Positions 28,970 through 36,357 of a DNA stretch of 64,000 nt are shown here, piece by piece. This DNA comes from a virus. The stretch is taken from positions 32,881 to 96,880 of IMG/VR virus record IMGVR_UViG_3300037483_000361; one strand, 5' to 3'. The position numbers and the translations under genes are program-made. Numbering within the stretch: the first letter of the stretch is position 1; every line of letters begins with the position of its first letter. A model generated the notes under the pieces. It saw only the letters and a list, made by a program, of their open reading frames with translations. It was not told the origin of the DNA and did no database searches.

Positions 28970-29425
28970 CTACTCCAACTGTTTGTCTATCATCTTCCAC
29001 AGATTTTCAAACTCACCTTTCTTGTAAAGAATAGACTTAAACGTTGGGTGTTGCTTTCGATACATATTAATCTTTGCTCCTGCCGTGACGTTTGCCAACC
29101 GGTCACACAACTTCACAAACACCGCGGATTTGCTAGCCCGGATGCGTTGGAACGTTGCTTCTTTTGACTCACGATTGGAAACCAAGTCTACGATGTTTGC
29201 AATGTTGGAACCAAATTGCTGTTGAAGTTCTGCTTTGGTGACAGAAGTATCTTCAAGAACATCATGCAACCATGCGGCTGCTTGTTCATCAGTTGAGCCG
29301 CCAAATCGTCGAGCGAGCGTATAGACTTGCGCGAGATGGTACGTATAGGGCGTCCCTACGCCGTATTGTTGGCCGCCGTGTGCTTTGATGGCGAACTTGG
29401 CTGCCTCTTTAATCACATCGTTCAT
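28970..29425 (-). CDS. small alarmone (ppGpp) hydrolase-like HD protein
   Basis: AHGGQ..PY..HL, AAWLHDVLEDT, VKLCDRLAN. Confidence 0.8.
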   Translation of the reverse strand: MNDVIKEAAKFAIKAHGGQQYGVGTPYTYHLAQVYTLARRFGGSTDEQAAAWLHDVLEDTSVTKAELQQQFGSNIANIVDLVSNRESKEATFQRIRASKSAVFVKLCDRLANVTAGAKINMYRKQHPTFKSILYKKGEFENLWKMIDKQLE

Positions 29426-29427
29426 AG

Positions 29428-29501
29428 AGCTACCTCGGGGAGTTGAACCCCGGACCTCATCTTTACCAAAGATGCGCTCTGACCACCTGAGCTAAGGCAG
29501 C
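29428..29501 (-). tRNA. tRNA-Thr(GGT)
   Basis: cloverleaf, loop TTGGTAA. Confidence 0.9.
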
Positions 29502-29502
29502 G

Positions 29503-29578
29503 TAGCGGGGCAAGGAGTTGAACCTTGTACACCATTCACCTTATGAGGGTGATGAGCCGCCGTTGCTCGATCCCCGCG
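29503..29578 (-). tRNA. tRNA-Met(CAT), initiator-like C1:U72 mismatch
   Basis: loop CTCATAA. Confidence 0.8.
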
Positions 29579-29596
29579 GCAATTAACCTGTATATA

Positions 29597-29670
29597 TGGC
29601 AGGGGTGGGATTTGAACCCACGACCTCCGCATTATGAGCGCGGCGAGCTACCGGCCTGCTCCACCCTGCG
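29597..29670 (-). tRNA. tRNA-Met(CAT), initiator-like C1:C72 mismatch
   Basis: loop CTCATAA. Confidence 0.88.
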
Positions 29671-29675
29671 TCGAA

Positions 29676-29870
29676 TTAAATTCTATCGAACATTTTACTC
29701 ATATCGTCAAACATCCGGTTCATATGATCGAACAACTTGTCCATTTGCTGTTCAATCACTCTTTGTTTTTCTGGCGGGAGCTTAACATCATTTGCTGATC
29801 CCATCTTCTTATCGGGTGAATCCGAAATGGTCACGGTGACAGTTTTGAACATAGATGATGGACTCCTCAC
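29676..29870 (-). CDS. hypothetical protein
   Basis: short ORF, start uncertain. Confidence 0.45.
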   Translation of the reverse strand: MRSPSSMFKTVTVTISDSPDKKMGSANDVKLPPEKQRVIEQQMDKLFDHMNRMFDDMSKMFDRI

Positions 29871-29896
29871 TGCCGCTAATGTCTGGTTAAGATTGA

Positions 29897-30187
29897 TTAG
29901 TTACTTTGACTAACTTTTTCGGGGTGCAAACTAACAGGGCAACACGGTTCAATACAAACGGATGCTGCTGCTTCGTCATGATATGTGGTAGTCTGCCCAT
30001 TCCCCTTTACATCTTTGACGGTCGTCCTTAAGCGGCGACCGTCAGTTGTTGGACGAGTAATTTCTATAGTTGCTGTCTCTGATCCTACATTATATCCCAT
30101 TGCTACGCGGACAGCAACATCCCCTACATTTACGATGATTTGATCACCATCATCGAGATCGAATACATTTACCTTTCTTGTTTTCAT
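29897..30187 (-). CDS. hypothetical protein
   Basis: GGAG SD. Confidence 0.55.
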   Translation of the reverse strand: MKTRKVNVFDLDDGDQIIVNVGDVAVRVAMGYNVGSETATIEITRPTTDGRRLRTTVKDVKGNGQTTTYHDEAAASVCIEPCCPVSLHPEKVSQSN

Positions 30188-30229
30188 ACTTTCTCCCTAC
30201 GACATGCATGTCGCAGCGGAGTCCATCAG

Positions 30230-30313
30230 AGGAAGCAGTGGGACTCGAACCCACAAGACCTTGCGGTCATACTTGCTTTCGAGGCAAGCTCCTAATCCAG
30301 CCGGGTTACTTCC
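30230..30313 (-). tRNA. tRNA-Ser(CGA)
   Basis: long variable arm, loop CTCGAAA. Confidence 0.88.
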
Positions 30314-30965
30314 GTTCAATTGCTAATCCGTTTCTTCTGACTCCTTTGCGTGACCAATGTTCATCATCTTCTTCAAGCACCTTGATGAATCCAGGCTTCA
30401 CGATCTTCCCGCGAAAGTATCCATGCTTTGCGTACCGCTTGACCACAACACCCTCGGCGAGAGCGCCATAAGCGGACTTGACCGGAACGATACTGTGAAG
30501 CTCATCCGCGGTGAACGCTCCACGGGCGACGAGCGGAACCATATGAAAGCCGTGCTCCTGGCAAAACTCTGCTCGTTCGTTGTAATTCAACCATGATCCA
30601 TTATCCCGGATGTCAAATACGAGAAAGTACTCGGGAAGGCGGTCATAGACGATGTGATGAACGGCATATAGCAATTCACCATAAATCAAATATCCCCCCG
30701 GGACACTCATGATGCGGTCATAGGCGACTGTGTTTGCCCAATTGTAGAAGTAGTCAAACTGCTCGTGGACAGATGGGCCAACTAACGAGTTTCGCTTTTG
30801 GAGTGAGAATCCCTTAGAGTGACGAATGATGCCAGTATTGGAACCATCCATCTTCTCTTCGACAACCACTTCGCCGGCCAACAGTCGCTTGAACGTTGTG
30901 TTGTCCAAGTTGTATTTGCTGGTCACTGGAAAGACGTGATATGTCTTTTCATATTTTACGAACAT
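30306..30965 (-). CDS. ATP-dependent RNA ligase (Rnl2-like nucleotidyltransferase domain)
   Basis: EEKMDGSN (KxDG), YGEL, FLVFDI, EGVVVK, GKIV. Confidence 0.85.
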   Translation of the reverse strand: MFVKYEKTYHVFPVTSKYNLDNTTFKRLLAGEVVVEEKMDGSNTGIIRHSKGFSLQKRNSLVGPSVHEQFDYFYNWANTVAYDRIMSVPGGYLIYGELLYAVHHIVYDRLPEYFLVFDIRDNGSWLNYNERAEFCQEHGFHMVPLVARGAFTADELHSIVPVKSAYGALAEGVVVKRYAKHGYFRGKIVKPGFIKVLEEDDEHWSRKGVRRNGLAIERK

Positions 30966-31012
30966 GGCTTGAGCCTTTCAAGATAACCTCTAATGAACGC
31001 TAACTGCCAAGA

Positions 31013-31097
31013 CGGAAGCGGAGGGACTCGAACCCCCAACGGTGATTAGCCGTTACCAGTTTTCAAGACTGGGCCCTCATCCAGCCGGATCACTTCC
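31013..31097 (-). tRNA. tRNA-Ser(TGA)
   Basis: long variable arm, loop CTTGAAA. Confidence 0.9.
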
Positions 31098-31266
31098 AGT
31101 CCGATATTTTTGAATCGCGTCGGTATACGACGAGTTTCACGTCGAGCGCGATATTCCCCCGCTACCATCACAAATTTAGCGTGCTGTGCTGCACGGCTGG
31201 CGTGGTAAAATTTTCCACTTCCCCGGCACCAATCACTCTGACTTTATCCAGCGGAGTGATACGCTG

Positions 31267-31353
31267 TTATTTCTTGTGGCGGCGCTTCCATTGAGCTCTA
31301 CGCTTTGCGGAGCCCTTCTTGCGGCGGCCGCGATGCTTTTTTGGGTAAGGCAT
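31267..31353 (-). CDS. 28-aa highly basic peptide MPYPKKHRGRRKKGSAKRRAQWKRRHKK
   Basis: GAGGA SD, ATG..TAA. Confidence 0.6.
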   Translation of the reverse strand: MPYPKKHRGRRKKGSAKRRAQWKRRHKK

Positions 31354-31372
31354 GTCAGTTCCTCAGTTATAA

Positions 31373-31455
31373 CGGAAGTGACAGGACTCGAACCTGCAAG
31401 GGCTTTCGCCCGTGCCTCATTTCCAGTGAGGTTCCTCACCACTCGGATCACTTCC
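31373..31455 (-). tRNA. tRNA-Ser(GGA)
   Basis: long variable arm, loop CTGGAAA. Confidence 0.9.
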
Positions 31456-31532
31456 ATAACCACAGCGTTGTCTTGCGGAAGCGTATCCGCCCACCAATCG
31501 TGATGGGACTAAACGCTCGCTGCGGTCACTTC

Positions 31533-31982
31533 CTAAATATGAATCAGCGTCACACCAGCTTCACGGTACAACGATTCTGCCAACTGCATGTCATCCATCC
31601 AACGAGCCATGAATGAGTTTGCCGGATCAAACACAGGCGATACAACCGTTGAAATGCCCGCTTGGATGACATGAACAGCACATCGTGAACAACTTTGCCC
31701 CGGCCAATTGTAGAGCGTGTAACCGTCTAGACGTTCTCGTGCATTCAAGATTGCGTTCATTTCACTATGAATGACTCGCTTATACTTCTCATCCCGGTTA
31801 TTGAGAAACTCGGGTGTGTCCGCAATCTTGCGTGGGAATCCATTGAATCCCACCGATGCTATCGTTTTGTCAGGACGGACAATCACCCCACCAGTTTTCG
31901 TTGAGGGGTCCTTTGAAGCAGTAGCTACATGTGCTGCTAATTGTAAATACCACACATGCCACCAATTTGGATCACGATGCAT
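31533..31982 (-). CDS. dCMP deaminase
   Basis: SKDPSTK, GFNGFP, HSEMNA, CSRC. Confidence 0.9.
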   Translation of the reverse strand: MHRDPNWWHVWYLQLAAHVATASKDPSTKTGGVIVRPDKTIASVGFNGFPRKIADTPEFLNNRDEKYKRVIHSEMNAILNARERLDGYTLYNWPGQSCSRCAVHVIQAGISTVVSPVFDPANSFMARWMDDMQLAESLYREAGVTLIHI

Positions 31983-32391
31983 GTTTTAACTCCTGCAATC
32001 TATTTGCTAACCACTTTCTCTGTTCAATAATGTCTAGTGGTATTCCAGCTTTACCACTGTTAGTCTTTGATTTAGTTTGCTGAATTGCAATTATCAATAA
32101 TGCTTGCTCCGCTTTCTCTTTTAGAAATGGAGCCAAAATTTGACAAACCTTTGCTGCTTCATTATCAGCCACCGACCATCTATACAACTGCTTATGATGT
32201 TTTTGTCGTCGTTTTTCACAAGCAAATTGACCACCAAATATTTTATGGAGCCACTCTATAGTAGGCCGATGTGAATTAGTGCAAGTAACAGCTGCTTTAC
32301 AATAACGATCTTTGGATGAATAAAAGCATCCTTCACCATCCAAAAACCCTGCCGCATATGCTAGTATAGCTTCATCCAACTTATCTGTCAT
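31972..32391 (-). CDS. free-standing LAGLIDADG homing endonuclease
   Basis: YAAGFLDGEGC; lower GC than flanks. Confidence 0.85.
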   Translation of the reverse strand: MTDKLDEAILAYAAGFLDGEGCFYSSKDRYCKAAVTCTNSHRPTIEWLHKIFGGQFACEKRRQKHHKQLYRWSVADNEAAKVCQILAPFLKEKAEQALLIIAIQQTKSKTNSGKAGIPLDIIEQRKWLANRLQELKHAS

Positions 32392-32412
32392 AACCTTTCC
32401 TATGATGATTGA

Positions 32413-32488
32413 TGATCGCTACTGGATTCGGACCAGTGGCCTCTTGCGTGTCGAGCAAGCGCTCTGAACCAGGCTGAGCTAAGCGATC
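32413..32488 (-). tRNA. tRNA-Val(GAC)
   Basis: loop TCGACAC (C33). Confidence 0.85.
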
Positions 32489-32812
32489 TTATAGTTCGTG
32501 ATTCCAAAGAATTTTTGCGTCTCCATAGGCACGCTCGAGTCCTGCGATCCGTTCACGGCGTTCGGACTGTTCCTGTTCTGAAATTCTCATATCTCCCATC
32601 TCATCTAAGTCTCTGCGTACTTCTGCAACAAACTCAGGATCGGGGCCGCGCTGGCGATAATATTGAACGGTGCCTTCAATGCGGTTGAGAAGATCGGTCC
32701 AATATTCGCCGGCCGATTCCCATCTGCGTCGAATCAAAAACGCGTTCGTCCATTGATACAATCGAATGCCAAGCAAGGTGCCAAAAACACCAATAAATAA
32801 CCCTAGAAACAT
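32489..32812 (-). CDS. membrane-anchored hypothetical protein
   Basis: GGAGG SD, N-terminal TM. Confidence 0.6.
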   Translation of the reverse strand: MFLGLFIGVFGTLLGIRLYQWTNAFLIRRRWESAGEYWTDLLNRIEGTVQYYRQRGPDPEFVAEVRRDLDEMGDMRISEQEQSERRERIAGLERAYGDAKILWNHEL

Positions 32813-32827
32813 ATAACCTCCGTTGAG

Positions 32828-33178
32828 TGGCGACCGCATAGCCGGAATTTTGTTTTAAGCCATCATCTGTCTCACGAATAAACCGTGGTCATTTCTGACT
32901 GCCGCTACCCGACTTCACAGGGCGAAAGGATGGGCCCTCAGTCTGTTTGCGTTGCATTCTCACTCGTAGTGCGAACGAAGTTGGATGTCTCTGGCCACGC
33001 TGTATTCCAAGCGTAGAAACATTCTAAGGGTCGTCCACCAGAGCTTGCCGACGCCAATAGTCCACCCAACTTCTCCTACGTCCCTTCACGAATGTCCCGA
33101 GCTTCCTCAATAACATAAACTAGGATTTCGATTCCGACTCAACGGACTAGTCTTGTTACTGCGATGGCCGGGTCACCA
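32828..33178 (-). ncRNA. rnpB: RNase P RNA (divergent)
   Basis: P1 TGGTGACC/GGTCGCCA; GAGGAAGCTCGG (CR I); AGACAGATGATGG (CR IV); ACAAAATTCCGGCTA (CR V). Confidence 0.8.
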
Positions 33179-33179
33179 G

Positions 33180-33254
33180 TCCGTTCGGGAGGATTTGAAC
33201 CTCCACATGCTGCTGTATCAGAGCAGTGCCTTCACCGGGTTTGGCTACGAACGG
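33180..33254 (-). tRNA. tRNA-Ile(GAT)
   Basis: loop CTGATAC. Confidence 0.85.
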
Positions 33255-33259
33255 ATAAA

Positions 33260-33529
33260 CTACGACTTCTTCTTTCTACTCTTTTCTCGGCGGCCGCGAT
33301 TCTTCGACTCTGCTTCAAAGCCGCTAATCTTGCCGCCTTTATGCGACGCATCTTTGCCGTCGCCATTACCATAGGTTCCCCTTTTGCGATTATACTGATT
33401 GAGTTCTGCTCGGTATTTCTTCATCTTCTTTGATGACTGAAATTTCCGATACTCGTCTTTGTAATCGCGATCTTCGAGAAGTTTGCTGACTTCTTCTTGA
33501 ATGATTTCTCTCAATTCACTTAGCTTCAT
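33260..33529 (-). CDS. small basic HNH-like protein with IIQEE..LLE leader
   Basis: RDYKDEY..GDGKDASH..NRGR. Confidence 0.6.
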   Translation of the reverse strand: MKLSELREIIQEEVSKLLEDRDYKDEYRKFQSSKKMKKYRAELNQYNRKRGTYGNGDGKDASHKGGKISGFEAESKNRGRREKSRKKKS

Positions 33530-33530
33530 A

Positions 33531-33616
33531 CGGAAGGTAAGAGATTCGAACTCTTACACCCTTTCGGATGCATCGTTTAGCAAACGAGCCCGGCACACCA
33601 TCTCCGGCGACCTTCC
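33531..33616 (-). tRNA. tRNA-Ser(GCT)
   Basis: long variable arm, loop TTGCTAA. Confidence 0.85.
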
Positions 33617-33618
33617 AA

Positions 33619-33812
33619 GCAGTAGAGCGGACTTTTGTCAGGCCAATATATGAGCGAGCAATTGCCAACTGTGAGTAGACGCTCGTTTATTACCTTCTCA
33701 ACTCAGGCGAGCGGTCGCTTCACAATCGGGCATTTGCACCAACTTTTACTGGCGTCCGTTGAGGGGACCGTGGCGATTGGAGCTTCTATTTCAGCCCTTT
33801 TCACTCTACTAC
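33619..33812 (-). ncRNA. ~194-nt long imperfect hairpin RNA (6S-like size and shape)
   Basis: GTAGTAGAGTG/CGCTCTACTGC closing stem plus nested helices. Confidence 0.45.
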
Positions 33813-33814
33813 AG

Positions 33815-33888
33815 TATCCCCGGAGGGATTCGAACCCCCAACCCCGAGCTTCGTAGGCTCGTGCTCTATCCAGTTGAGCTACGGAGAT
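33815..33888 (-). tRNA. tRNA-Arg(ACG)
   Basis: loop CTACGAA. Confidence 0.9.
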
Positions 33889-33889
33889 A

Positions 33890-34835
33890 TGAAGGGCTGA
33901 GACTACACCCTTTTCCAGTGCCACCTTTGTCAGATTATCCTACAGTGTCCCCACCATAGGTTCCCGACGTATCCACCCCTCCACGAGAGGTCTGACACCA
34001 AGACTGCTTTTGTTAAAGCGGTAGCGATTCCGCTGTCGCGACAGGCGCGCTCGACGTTTCGAATTCCGTCAGTCTTGCGGACTGTAAATGGGCGCTAACC
34101 CAAACGTGCATTTTCACATCAACGGTGCATCTCTCTTGGGGAGAGATTCCCGCCTCTGTTGTCCCGAAGGACCAGAGGATTAAGCCTCTTTTCCTCCCGT
34201 CACCGAGTCGGTCTTTCCATTTTTGGTGCTTAGCGTAGGAGTTGAACCTACAACCATTAGTTTAGCATACTAGTGCTCTACCATTGAGCTAGATAAGCGA
34301 CTTACCCGTGAAGTGCCGACTCTGTAGTTGCCAATCTCTTTTGGAGATCAGAATGCCACACTTCACTGCTGACTTTCGTTGTCACTACTCATCCAGACTT
34401 CAAGAGACATAGGCCAATTAACTCCGCTTGCTAGTGGTCCAGCGAGGACCGGCGGAATTGACCCTTCCCTATGATCATACTATCGAGCCCTTGTGATACC
34501 ACACTCGGACCAAACAATAACACTCCTTGCTAATCTACCGTCGCGTAGGGGTATATAGGGAGTCCAGCACCACCTGTCAATCTTCTCCTACGGCCGTTCC
34601 CGTTACCCTTAAGGGCCATTCACGGCGGTTACATAGAAGTTTTTCCCCTAACTACGCTTCCGGCCTATCTCCAACACTCGCGTGCTGAAGCTGTGGCCTC
34701 GCGGCCACAAAGGCGGAGCTTGCTTGGATGAACCGACCGGAATCGGCGCGGGTTGGTAAGCCTCACCGCTTTACACGTCTTGCGACGTGCTGTTCTTTTC
34801 CCCGAAGGGACGGGGCGCCAAACCGCCCCGTAAAC
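33890..34835 (-). ncRNA. giant ornate ncRNA, GOLLD-like, with embedded tRNA
   Basis: ~945 nt without a credible ORF; many GNRA/UUCG hairpins on minus strand; own promoter. Confidence 0.6.
34224..34298 (-). tRNA. atypical tRNA (GCT anticodon, short variable loop, encoded CCA) inside large ncRNA
   Basis: canonical D/T arms, loop ATGCTAA, stem mismatches. Confidence 0.6.
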
Positions 34836-34838
34836 CTG

Positions 34839-34886
34839 TTGTCAAAGATCGATACTAAATCTACTGCCTTACTGCGTATTTGTCAA
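34839..34886 (-). promoter_or_regulatory. sigma70 promoter plus boxA-like element
   Basis: TTGACA-17-TAGATT then GATCTTTGACAA. Confidence 0.7.
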
Positions 34887-34896
34887 GTGCCTATAA

Positions 34897-35445
34897 CTAG
34901 AGAGTCAATAACACTTTAGCGATGTTTTTGCTATCATCGATGCCGCGGTGAGCGGTTCCGTCAAACGGGATACCAAGATGTTCAACCGCCTTGCCGAGAC
35001 CACAACTGAATCCGTGCTTCCAACAAAACAGAGACTTCACATTCAAGTGATTGTTGTTGAACGGATTTGCTACCTGCTCACGAAGGCATTGCCGAAGGAT
35101 GATGTCTCGATCATAACAGCCCCAGCTTGCCCACATGTTCCGGTCACATCGATATTGCTTCTCTAAAAGTTCGAGTGCCTTCCTAAACGAATAGCCGTGT
35201 TCATCGACATACGCAGGCGTGAGCGTCGTTAATGCCGTACAGAACGGGCTAATCGCCGACGTAGTAGGTCGAACGATAATAGCTCGCGACTCAACAATCG
35301 TTTTCTTGTCTAGTTCGATAACTGTCAAACCAAACTCGATGATTTCGGAGTCACGCTTCTGCTGATCGGTGAAATTGCCCTGAGCGTCATGCTCCCAGCA
35401 TGTTGCTTCAACGTCAATGACCAAACAAATTTTTGGAGTGCTCAT
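34897..35445 (-). CDS. DEDDh 3'-5' exonuclease (ERI-1/KapD-like)
   Basis: IDVEATC, EIIEFG, WG.YD, HRGIDD. Confidence 0.88.
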   Translation of the reverse strand: MSTPKICLVIDVEATCWEHDAQGNFTDQQKRDSEIIEFGLTVIELDKKTIVESRAIIVRPTTSAISPFCTALTTLTPAYVDEHGYSFRKALELLEKQYRCDRNMWASWGCYDRDIILRQCLREQVANPFNNNHLNVKSLFCWKHGFSCGLGKAVEHLGIPFDGTAHRGIDDSKNIAKVLLTL

Positions 35446-35463
35446 ATAACCTTTTGCTAGTTA

Positions 35464-35619
35464 TTACTCCGTTGGAATTTCTGGTTTATCCGAATCATCA
35501 CCATTGCTGCGAGGCCGACCAATGCCGAGCCGTGAGGACGAGCTCTTTCGCGTTTTAACCAAAACAAATATTCCACCGGCCAATAGAGCTAGCGCTATCA
35601 AACCTCCAAGAAATTCCAT
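35464..35619 (-). CDS. 51-aa single-TM protein
   Basis: GGAG SD; MEFLGGLIALALLAGGIFVLVK. Confidence 0.55.
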   Translation of the reverse strand: MEFLGGLIALALLAGGIFVLVKTRKSSSSRLGIGRPRSNGDDSDKPEIPTE

Positions 35620-35623
35620 TGTG

Positions 35624-35851
35624 TTATCTCCCTATAAATGATTCTACAAACCCACGATAACTGATCAACGGATGCGTTGCGTCGCCAAACGTCATCTCAA
35701 CTCCGTTGCTAAACTTCACGATGATATACTTGTGTGGACCCCATACATATCGGTCCACAATTGCACCCATCATTCCTACAGGAACCTCTAGAGTCATGCC
35801 CTTGCCTGTTCCGTTGTAGATGTTCTTACGTGCTTGGACCACTTGATTCAC
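35624..35851 (-). CDS. hypothetical protein
   Basis: short ORF. Confidence 0.5.
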   Translation of the reverse strand: MNQVVQARKNIYNGTGKGMTLEVPVGMMGAIVDRYVWGPHKYIIVKFSNGVEMTFGDATHPLISYRGFVESFIGR

Positions 35852-35961
35852 TTATCAGGCGAAGATCGGTAATGTGCAGCGGAACATATTGGGAATAAAC
35901 ATATTCGTTCCAATTACGTGCTCTTGCCCACTGCGTAAGATATTCAACGAGAGTGACTTGC

Positions 35962-36357
35962 TTAATCATGCGACTTCAACGCCTGATGGCGTGCCTCTAT
36001 CATTGGTCCAATGTCGGCCATAATCTGAGAATACGATGACGTGAAGCCGCTTTTATGATCCTTGACTCGATTATCTGGCTCATGATACGTGCGGATGCAC
36101 TCATTAGAGATGACGTGCTCCTTCCGTTCTTGAGCCTTGACATGCGAGACGATCTTATCTGCAAGACGACGAAAGGCGATCTTGCGATTCTGTCCTTGAC
36201 TTCGTGTCTCACGACATTCAGCAAACAATCCCGTGTCAAGATGGGTGATGCGAACGCCACTATCCGATTTGTTCTGATGCTGACCGCCGGGGCCGCCAGA
36301 ACGAAATGTGTCGATTCGAAAGTCTTTGCGTCGTGCTTGAAATATGACTTGTTTCAT
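35962..36357 (-). CDS. class I release-factor-like GGQ peptidyl-tRNA hydrolase (ArfB-like, no codon-recognition domain)
   Basis: RSGGPGGQHQNK, VRITH, RSQGQNR, IRTYH..NRVKDH. Confidence 0.85.
   Translation of the reverse strand: MKQVIFQARRKDFRIDTFRSGGPGGQHQNKSDSGVRITHLDTGLFAECRETRSQGQNRKIAFRRLADKIVSHVKAQERKEHVISNECIRTYHEPDNRVKDHKSGFTSSYSQIMADIGPMIEARHQALKSHD

Follow-up and report, generated by a model that had tools for sequence, protein, structure and literature searches.

A probable RNase P RNA of type-A descent with a remodelled specificity half in the tRNA array of a large phage

The locus described here raises the question of whether a large phage with its own array of tRNA genes also encodes the RNA of RNase P, one of the few universal ribozymes, which trims the 5' end of new tRNAs and which, to our knowledge, has so far been regarded as encoded by cells and organelles. 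The DNA analysed is a 64-kb stretch, called the window throughout, of an IMG/VR virus record of 96.9 kb with a completeness of about 54%; it derives from sediment and belongs to a large phage, with a T4-type baseplate wedge gene in the record. Judged from its fold and from its relatives, the element in question is likely a phage-encoded RNase P RNA of type-A descent, in which the whole catalytic domain is present and a small phage-specific module takes the place of the specificity domain.

The element lies inside an array on the minus strand of the window, where about 50 tRNA genes occur together with a tmRNA and a GOLLD RNA. It begins one base past tRNA-Ile(GAT) on the same strand, a gene without an encoded CCA, and RNA-handling genes occur among the tRNAs of the array across window positions 28970-36357 (-). 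The main features of this neighbourhood are as follows.

28970-29425 (-): HD hydrolase gene, interleaved with tRNAs
30306-30965 (-): RNA ligase gene, interleaved with tRNAs
31533-31982 (-): TadA/dCMP-type deaminase gene, interleaved with tRNAs
31972-32391 (-): LAGLIDADG endonuclease gene, interleaved with tRNAs
32828..33178 (-): whole RNase P-like RNA, 351 nt, bounded by P1
33179-33254 (-): tRNA-Ile(GAT), directly 5' of the RNase P-like RNA, called by ARAGORN and Rfam
34897-35445 (-): RNase T-like exonuclease gene, interleaved with tRNAs
35962-36357 (-): RF-1-domain (ArfB-like) protein gene, interleaved with tRNAs

The sequence-only reading had placed the RNA at 33178 to 32828, directly 3' of tRNA-Ile within the array, and had seen no gene for the protein subunit RnpA. 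Its coordinates coincide with the exact ends of the P1 helix strands, the tRNA-Ile(GAT) gene at 33179-33254 lies on the same strand, and the search for RnpA gave no PF00825 match across the whole 96.9-kb record, itself about 54% complete. The gap between tRNA-Ile and the downstream small ORF holds no ORF longer than 43 amino acids, and the start of that small ORF is most likely the ATG at 32812, which follows a GGAGG ribosome-binding site.

Several other elements of the array were recorded alongside. The GOLLD RNA occupies window positions 33894-34366 (-), about 700 nt upstream of the RNase P-like RNA, and scores 159.4 bits against an Rfam gathering threshold of 150; a tRNA-like gene (34224-34298) is embedded in it. 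The phage tmRNA (28614-28963, minus strand, 116.8 bits) encodes the tag AEPLKLAA. An 89-aa ORF (phrog_6437; 33260-33529, minus strand) upstream of tRNA-Ile has about 370 relatives in viral contigs, and an RNase P RNA was adjacent in none of the 80 loci fetched for it; likewise, none of the 85 loci reached through two neighbouring small ORFs contained a homolog of the RNA.

The anatomy of the window copy was read by hand from the sequence, 5' to 3', with RNA position p corresponding to window coordinate 33179-p. The parts identified are listed below in RNA order, together with the evidence for each; R2 denotes a covariance model and L087 a 301-nt relative, both introduced further on.

33171-33178 with 32828-32835 (-): P1, 5' strand UGGUGACC with 3' strand GGUCGCCA, 8 bp (RNA 1-8/344-351)
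33163-33168 with 32859-32864 (-): P2, GCCAUC/GAUGGC (RNA 11-16/315-320); all 6 pairs covary
33108-33161 (-): P3, long irregular hairpin closed by C18-G71 (RNA 18-71); closing pairs covary, 97.8% paired
33095-33108 (-): CR-I, consisting of J3/4 GAGGA and then the P4 5' strand AGC-U-CGGGA (RNA 76-84); read from the sequence
33090-33094 with 32955-32959 (-): P5, CAUUC/GAAUG; paired in the R2 alignment, 3 of 5 pairs covary
33082-33087 with 32924-32929 (-): P6, GAAGGG/CCUUUC, pseudoknot into the P17 loop; complementarity in relatives
32966-33079 (-): specificity-domain stand-in, comprising a P7-like helix, a conserved GGAG and an expanded arm (32970-33075)
33076-33079 with 32966-32969 (-): P7-like helix, GUAG/CUAC; paired by R2 in the window
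32952-32954 (-): J5/15, CAA; aligns to GCAA of RNaseP_bact_a
32903-32951 (-): P15 CGC/GCG, P16 GACU/AGUC and P17 AGGGC/GCCCU; all pairs covary
32906-32910 (-): L15 loop, GGGUA; CGGGU aligns to CGGGUa of the Rfam model
32888-32899 (-): P18-like hairpin, GUCA-GAAA-UGAC; counterpart GCC-GAAA-GGC in L087
32873-32887 (-): extra hairpin, CACGG-UUUAU-UCGUG, between the P18-like hairpin and J18/2; CGCGGA...UUCGUG in L087
32865-32872 (-): J18/2 (CR-IV-like), AGACAGAU; read from the sequence
32848-32858 (-): J2/4 (CR-V), UUAAAACAAAA, 11 nt, directly before the P4 3' strand; read from the sequence
32840-32847 (-): P4 3' strand, UUCCGGCU, pseudoknot partner complementing AGC-U-CGGGA (RNA 332-339)

In order and spacing, P1-P3, P4, P5, P6 and P15-P17 of the window copy match the catalytic domain of type A. 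P4 consists of 3 bp, a bulged U (at 33100) and 5 bp, the geometry of the bacterial P4, and CR-I stands in the same register as the Rfam consensus GAGGAAAGUCCGGg. The hairpin GUCA-GAAA-UGAC is putatively P18, and the extra hairpin beside it (32873-32887) is positioned, as we take it, like P19 of type B; both hairpins are missing from the short forms of the family. The P1 helix, GAGGA followed by P4, and ACAAAA ahead of the P4 3' strand bear out the claim that P1 and conserved regions I and V can be recognised, and the two strings quoted for P4, GAAGCTCGG and AAAATTCCGG, do occur, forming the helix as AGC-U-CGGGA / UUCCGGCU. For conserved region IV, claimed in the same breath, there is a CR-IV-like stretch, whose sequence AGACAGAU is off the family consensus.

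Databases offered no direct help with the window copy. Rfam release 15 gave no RNase P match there at gathering thresholds, nor at E<=10 on stretches of 1061 nt and of 363 nt; the RF00010 model had zero matches over the whole record, the copy was unmatched by RNaseP-T (RF02357), and L087 likewise lacked an RNase P match at E<=10. A blastn comparison of the window RNA, and of the relative L209, with GenBank phages found no match, and the pattern GAGGAAGCTCGGG...TTCCGGCT had zero matches in viral contigs. The folding energy of the window copy is ordinary (z=-0.77), and an RNAalifold prediction from two sequences was partly wrong because P4 competes with P2. The expectation of an Rfam covariance-model match, with which the RNA had originally been put forward, thus failed for the window copy both at gathering thresholds and at E<=10; the absence of such a hit, taken literally as a refutation, is overturned by the evidence from the family.

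Relatives were collected by several routes. The contig of L087, which also has a tmRNA (tag ADALPMAA), was reached through the neighbouring deaminase gene, and its homolog (L087:5191-5491) is 301 nt long, 76% identical and situated directly after a tRNA-Ile(GAT). It carries compensatory changes in P1 (C-G to U-A, the strands reading UGGUGAUC/GAUCACCA) and in P4 (CGG/CCG to CAG/CUG). A complete 163-kb phage and a close relative (L183/L184) contain a 197-nt form (L183:1475-1671) with a tRNA-Arg gene on either side, and a form of about 245 nt follows tRNA-Thr in L189, which was found with R1, a model of the 3' half; weaker R1 matches (L190-L196) were rejected as unstructured local matches. The P1 strands of L183 and L189 are wholly different in sequence and still complementary, P3 shrinks to 3 bp with a UACG loop in L183 and to 6 bp with GAAA in L189, and L087, L183 and L189 together show compensatory changes in P1, P2, P3, P4, P5, P6, P15 and P16. 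In L183, a 78-nt stem-closed element (L183:1397-1474, AUAAG.UAGCGC...GGCGCUUAU) fills the interval from tRNA-Arg(CCT) to the short RNase P RNA; ARAGORN makes no tRNA call for it.

Pattern searches then widened the set. The pattern GTGAGACAGATGATGG returned the L087 contig and 12 chance matches, two of which were read and are coding sequence, and the one metagenome scan brought up mostly a coding motif of marine phages, besides L138, whose RNA sequence is the same as that of L087. The viral-contig scan used the pattern GAGGAAGNTCNNNACAN{8,20}GTRGGAG, drawn from four sequences, and yielded 49 loci, the longest of their contigs reaching 508 kb. Most of these loci have an 8-nt P4 partner downstream that is perfectly complementary and preceded by ACAGAA, and most have AGAUGAAU or AGAUAAAU ahead of P2'. 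In all, 36 distinct members with a full core were obtained, ranging from 188 to 351 nt, the window copy being the longest. J2/4 measures 11 nt in 27 of the 36 and is longer or shorter in the others; in L244:5420-5617 (-), a hairpin (GGUCGC-AGAU-GCGGCC) is inserted inside it. Beside a tRNA, L209:1299-1413 (-) gives a sub-threshold match to YrlA, a Y RNA-like family (37.7 bits, E=1e-4). The same pattern scan of bacterial and archaeal genome contigs produced at least 120 matches, approximately the chance expectation for 596 Gb, and of the 80 loci checked, two belong to the family, each on a short MAG contig (2.3 and 5.6 kb).

Near-identical DNA also occurs in two other data sets, from sediment and soil, with 3 substitutions within the RNA. 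The variant 32831 C>T turns a U.G pair of P1 into U-A and the variant at 32934 turns a C-G pair of P17 into U.G, both keeping the pairing, while 32936 C>T, seen at low depth and perhaps erroneous, breaks a P17 pair (G-C to A.C).

Covariation among the relatives supports the fold predicted for the window copy. It was assessed in A8, a model alignment of 32 sequences, from which L087, L204, L218, L233, L235, L239, L243 and L244 were omitted because local alignment had lost their 3' or 5' part. Standard pairs fill 94.7% of the cells, against 71.5% after shuffling, with 0 of 500 shuffles reaching the observed value, and 29-42% are paired when the partners are slid by 1-3 columns. Both sides change in 28 of 37 pairs. 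For the nested helices, to which A8 was fitted, these figures are biased in favour of the structure. P4 stands apart in this respect, lying outside the model structure with its 3' strand outside the scan pattern: 98.4% of its cells are paired over the 32 sequences, both sides change in 4 of 8 pairs, and the alternations at three positions are CG/UG/GC/UA, AU/GC/UA and GC/AU/CG. In P2, 97.9% of cells are paired and each of the 6 pairs covaries. The P6 pseudoknot, examined with a custom script, reaches at least 5 bp in 23 of 26 relatives with at least 12 different sequence pairs, such as GAGAC/GUCUC, UUGCUUA/UGAGCAA and UCCAAG/CUUGGA. The constancy of GAGGAAG.TC...ACA and of GTRGGAG is partly a matter of ascertainment because the scan pattern forced these strings, but UGCAA, GGGU, ACAGAA and the A after P4', which the pattern did not force, are nearly invariant as well across the 32 sequences.

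The family was tied to known RNase P RNA by searches in both directions. With E-value thresholds, Rfam searches of 11 member loci gave RNaseP_bact_a matches at two, L208:5318-5514 (56.3 bits, E=1.5e-14) and L201:809-1022 (48.9 bits, E=4.8e-12); RNaseP_arch matched L205, L244 and L227 with E-values of 1e-4 to 3e-4. All member matches lie under the curated cut-offs, the RF00010 gathering threshold of 100 bits not being reached. The L208 alignment spans RNaseP_bact_a from end to end, skipping P7-P14 and P18 and aligning P1, P2, P3, GAGGAA(A)GUC, P5, GCAA, P15-P17, CGGGUA, AGAUGAAUG and AACAGAA-CC-G-C-UAC.

In the opposite direction, 15 short-form relatives, the window not among them, went into model R2 (176 positions, 29 pairs). 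Over both strands of the 64-kb window this model gave a single match, at 32838-33116 (-), with 46.7 bits and E=2.8e-9, the E-values of the home-built models R1 and R2 being rough; the rest of the record yielded no further copy. Aligned to the window, R2 forms P5 and the P7-like helix just as in the hand-drawn structure; because of long insertions, this local alignment mis-assigns P2 and skips P16-P18, and the assignment of these helices in the window rests on hand mapping and on L087. In a 3-kb stretch of E. coli, the best R2 match falls inside rnpB, covering CR-IV, P2' and CR-V (E=3.5e-4). The features found include a long-range P4 helix with a bulged U between CR-I and CR-V, a P1-P2-P3 frame round the core, P5, P15, P16 and P17, the P6 pseudoknot and GGU in the L15 loop. 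Taken together, the type-A catalytic architecture, the compensatory changes in relatives and the sub-threshold RNaseP_bact_a matches uphold the proposed identity, and the window element is very probably homologous to RNase P RNA.

The other half of the molecule differs. Beyond P6, the family carries a module of three parts, a helix of 4 bp (GURG/CYAC), the conserved GGAG and a single arm. The helix takes the place of P7, is paired in 96.1% of cells and shows alternation of A-U and G-C. This phage-specific module is expanded in the window copy, where the arm has an 11-bp helix (RNA 106-116 with 192-202) and two inner hairpins; the arm is GGC-UAAA-GCC in L183, and in L087 it has 9 bp and a hairpin, with changes on both sides. 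P8-P14, CR-II and CR-III, the parts that read the tRNA elbow, could not be recognised in the window copy by hand, and the Rfam alignment of L208 skips P7-P14, in line with the earlier description of a remodelled specificity domain.

The description of the core as divergent was equally well founded, and the divergence in P4 is a trait of the family. The second P4 pair is G-C in 32 of 32 aligned members, as opposed to the A-U of cellular RNase P, the Rfam consensus being GAGGAAAGUCC. In J2/4, the bacterial form ACAGAA is the family norm (G166 in 26 of 32 sequences, A in 6 of 32), and the window, with ACAAAA, departs from both the family and the bacterial consensus. J18/2 reads AGAUGAAU or AGAUAAAU in the family, as in the Rfam consensus CuAGAugAAUG, and the AGACAGAU of the window again departs from both. 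For P18 with a GNRA loop followed by J18/2 AGAUGAAU, the window has GUCA-GAAA-UGAC, the further hairpin and AGACAGAU, and the short forms are without P18 and keep AGAUGAAU or AGAUAAAU. The J2/4 and J18/2 of the window copy are the least canonical in the family.

Proximity to tRNA genes is common among the members: 28 of the 36 have a tRNA within 3 kb, and in 18 of the 36 a same-strand tRNA lies within 100 nt, often at 0-11 nt. Among GenBank phages, BLAST located one copy, in an unannotated 642-kb uncultured phage (LR756502.1), and positions 105784-106007 of the cultured Stenotrophomonas phage vB_SmaS-DLP_6 hold an unannotated copy, matched by R2 with 64.5 bits and E=7.4e-13. The latter copy (L370:985-1208, KU682439.2) lies between AAY80_165, a hypothetical gene, and tRNA-Arg-CCG. 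Of 40 member records, 38 lack RnpA (PF00825), seven of these being at least 90% complete; the two that have it are LR756502.1 (L366:1435-1803) and a 508-kb IMG/VR record (L367:1378-1818). Both homologs score over the PF00825 cut-off and contain the motif KRA..RNRVKRLMRE. In these two records, RNA and RnpA would together make up a full RNase P carried by a phage, with the proviso that the 508-kb record is classed as 'provirus' and its RnpA could belong to the host flank.

Judging by the conserved core and the position among tRNA genes, the window element is probably an active tRNA-processing ribozyme. It would be co-transcribed with the minus-strand tRNA array, and its 5' end could be freed by 3' maturation of tRNA-Ile, an RNase T-like exonuclease being encoded nearby. 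The RNA would then fold round P4 and, probably with host RnpA, remove the 5' leaders of about 50 phage pre-tRNAs and of the tmRNA precursor, so that tRNA-processing capacity might be raised or secured during infection. Catalytic domains of bacterial P RNA, together with the protein, retain activity. Having no normal reader of the tRNA elbow, the ribozyme may accept looser substrates, held through the acceptor stem and the 3' end at the GGGU loop. For the family as a whole we favour, on balance, a virus-specific lineage of miniature RNase P ribozymes that would act on their own tRNA arrays with host protein or none, a few of the largest phages adding RnpA to make up a complete viral RNase P.

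Three other accounts of the same data have to be weighed against tRNA processing. An RNA derived from RNase P might no longer cleave tRNA and might serve instead as a decoy or regulator, binding host RnpA or pre-tRNAs and redirecting the host enzyme. The protein-binding surfaces of bacterial RNase P are P2/P3, J18/2 and J2/4, and their retention here would suit such a role, as would the lost specificity domain, the altered P4 core with its G-C second pair in 32/32 members and the missing RnpA in 38 of 40 records. A decoy, however, would not need the parts that serve catalysis and docking, so the conservation and covariation of the P4 bulged U, J5/15 CAA, L15 GGGU and P6/P16/P17 count against it, and we regard this account as quite unlikely. 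An active ribozyme of RNase P descent could also have turned mainly to substrates other than tRNA, such as stem-closed spacers, the GOLLD tRNA-like element, mRNA punctuation sites or host RNAs. The array does hold many odd tRNA-like elements and a GOLLD with an embedded tRNA, and recognition of the T-loop is probably looser in the absence of an elbow-reading module; yet the genes found nearest and most often beside the RNA are those of ordinary tRNAs, the family retains the GGGU loop for pairing with the tRNA 3' end, and nothing points to any particular alternative substrate, which leaves such a shift of substrates unlikely.

That the element is a functionless, decaying fragment of a captured host rnpB, or a chance resemblance, would agree with the want of an Rfam match and the unremarkable folding energy of the window copy, but this account is highly improbable and already close to refuted. 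Compensatory changes preserve every helix across the 36 distinct members, which come from unrelated large phages; R2, from whose construction the window was excluded, finds a single site there at E=2.8e-9; and two of the three substitutions between near-identical copies preserve pairing. The preferred reading remains a viral RNase P RNA that processes tRNA.

If this reading is true, a ribozyme known only from cells and organelles is a viral gene too, and the 351-nt form of the window, with its rebuilt substrate arm, is a long variant in its own right. With a conserved viral lineage, the translation toolkit of phages, which includes tRNAs, tmRNA and release factors, would extend to tRNA maturation, and natural minimal type-A ribozymes of 188-351 nt without an elbow reader would be useful for probing the need for a specificity domain. 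Such a lineage would also account for ORF-free gaps in tRNA arrays, left blank by annotation pipelines because these RNAs fall under the Rfam cut-off. The unannotated copy in the cultured Stenotrophomonas phage DLP6 makes the idea directly testable.

This phage RNA family is missed by standard databases. Lui et al. applied all Rfam models to two megaphage genomes and obtained only tRNAs and a tmRNA (PMC8172020), so that such phage copies escaped notice. Al-Shayeb et al. make no mention of RNase P (PMC7162821), and no report of a virus-encoded RNase P RNA was found in the full-text literature outside subscription journals.

Among known systems, the nearest is the bacterial type-A RNase P RNA (RF00010; M1 RNA of E. 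coli, encoded by rnpB, 377 nt), with which the phage family shares P1-P6 and P15-P17, together with GAGGA, the bulged U after the third pair of P4, the A's of J5/15, the L15 GGU loop, J18/2 and ACAGAA followed by the P4 3' strand. The phage RNA differs in being encoded by a virus, in having a P7-like helix, GGAG and one variable arm in place of P8-P14 and CR-II/III, in the absence of P18 from its short forms and in a second P4 pair that is G-C, not A-U; unlike type A, the family scores entirely under the Rfam cut-off, the window copy going undetected. The P RNAs of the Candidate Phyla Radiation (PMC8172020) and of organelles are likewise reduced or rearranged and often missed by standard models, but they are cellular or organellar housekeeping genes, unlike the phage copies. 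The type-T RNase P RNA of Thermoproteaceae (Pyrobaculum; Lai et al. 2010), described in a passage of PMC7191817 as active despite near-total loss of the specificity domain, has in common with the phage family a catalytic domain that is kept and a specificity domain that is lost. Type T, however, is archaeal and cellular and is the sole RNase P RNA of its organism, whereas the phage RNAs, by their P6, P16, P17 and L15, are of bacterial type A and are extra copies carried on a virus.
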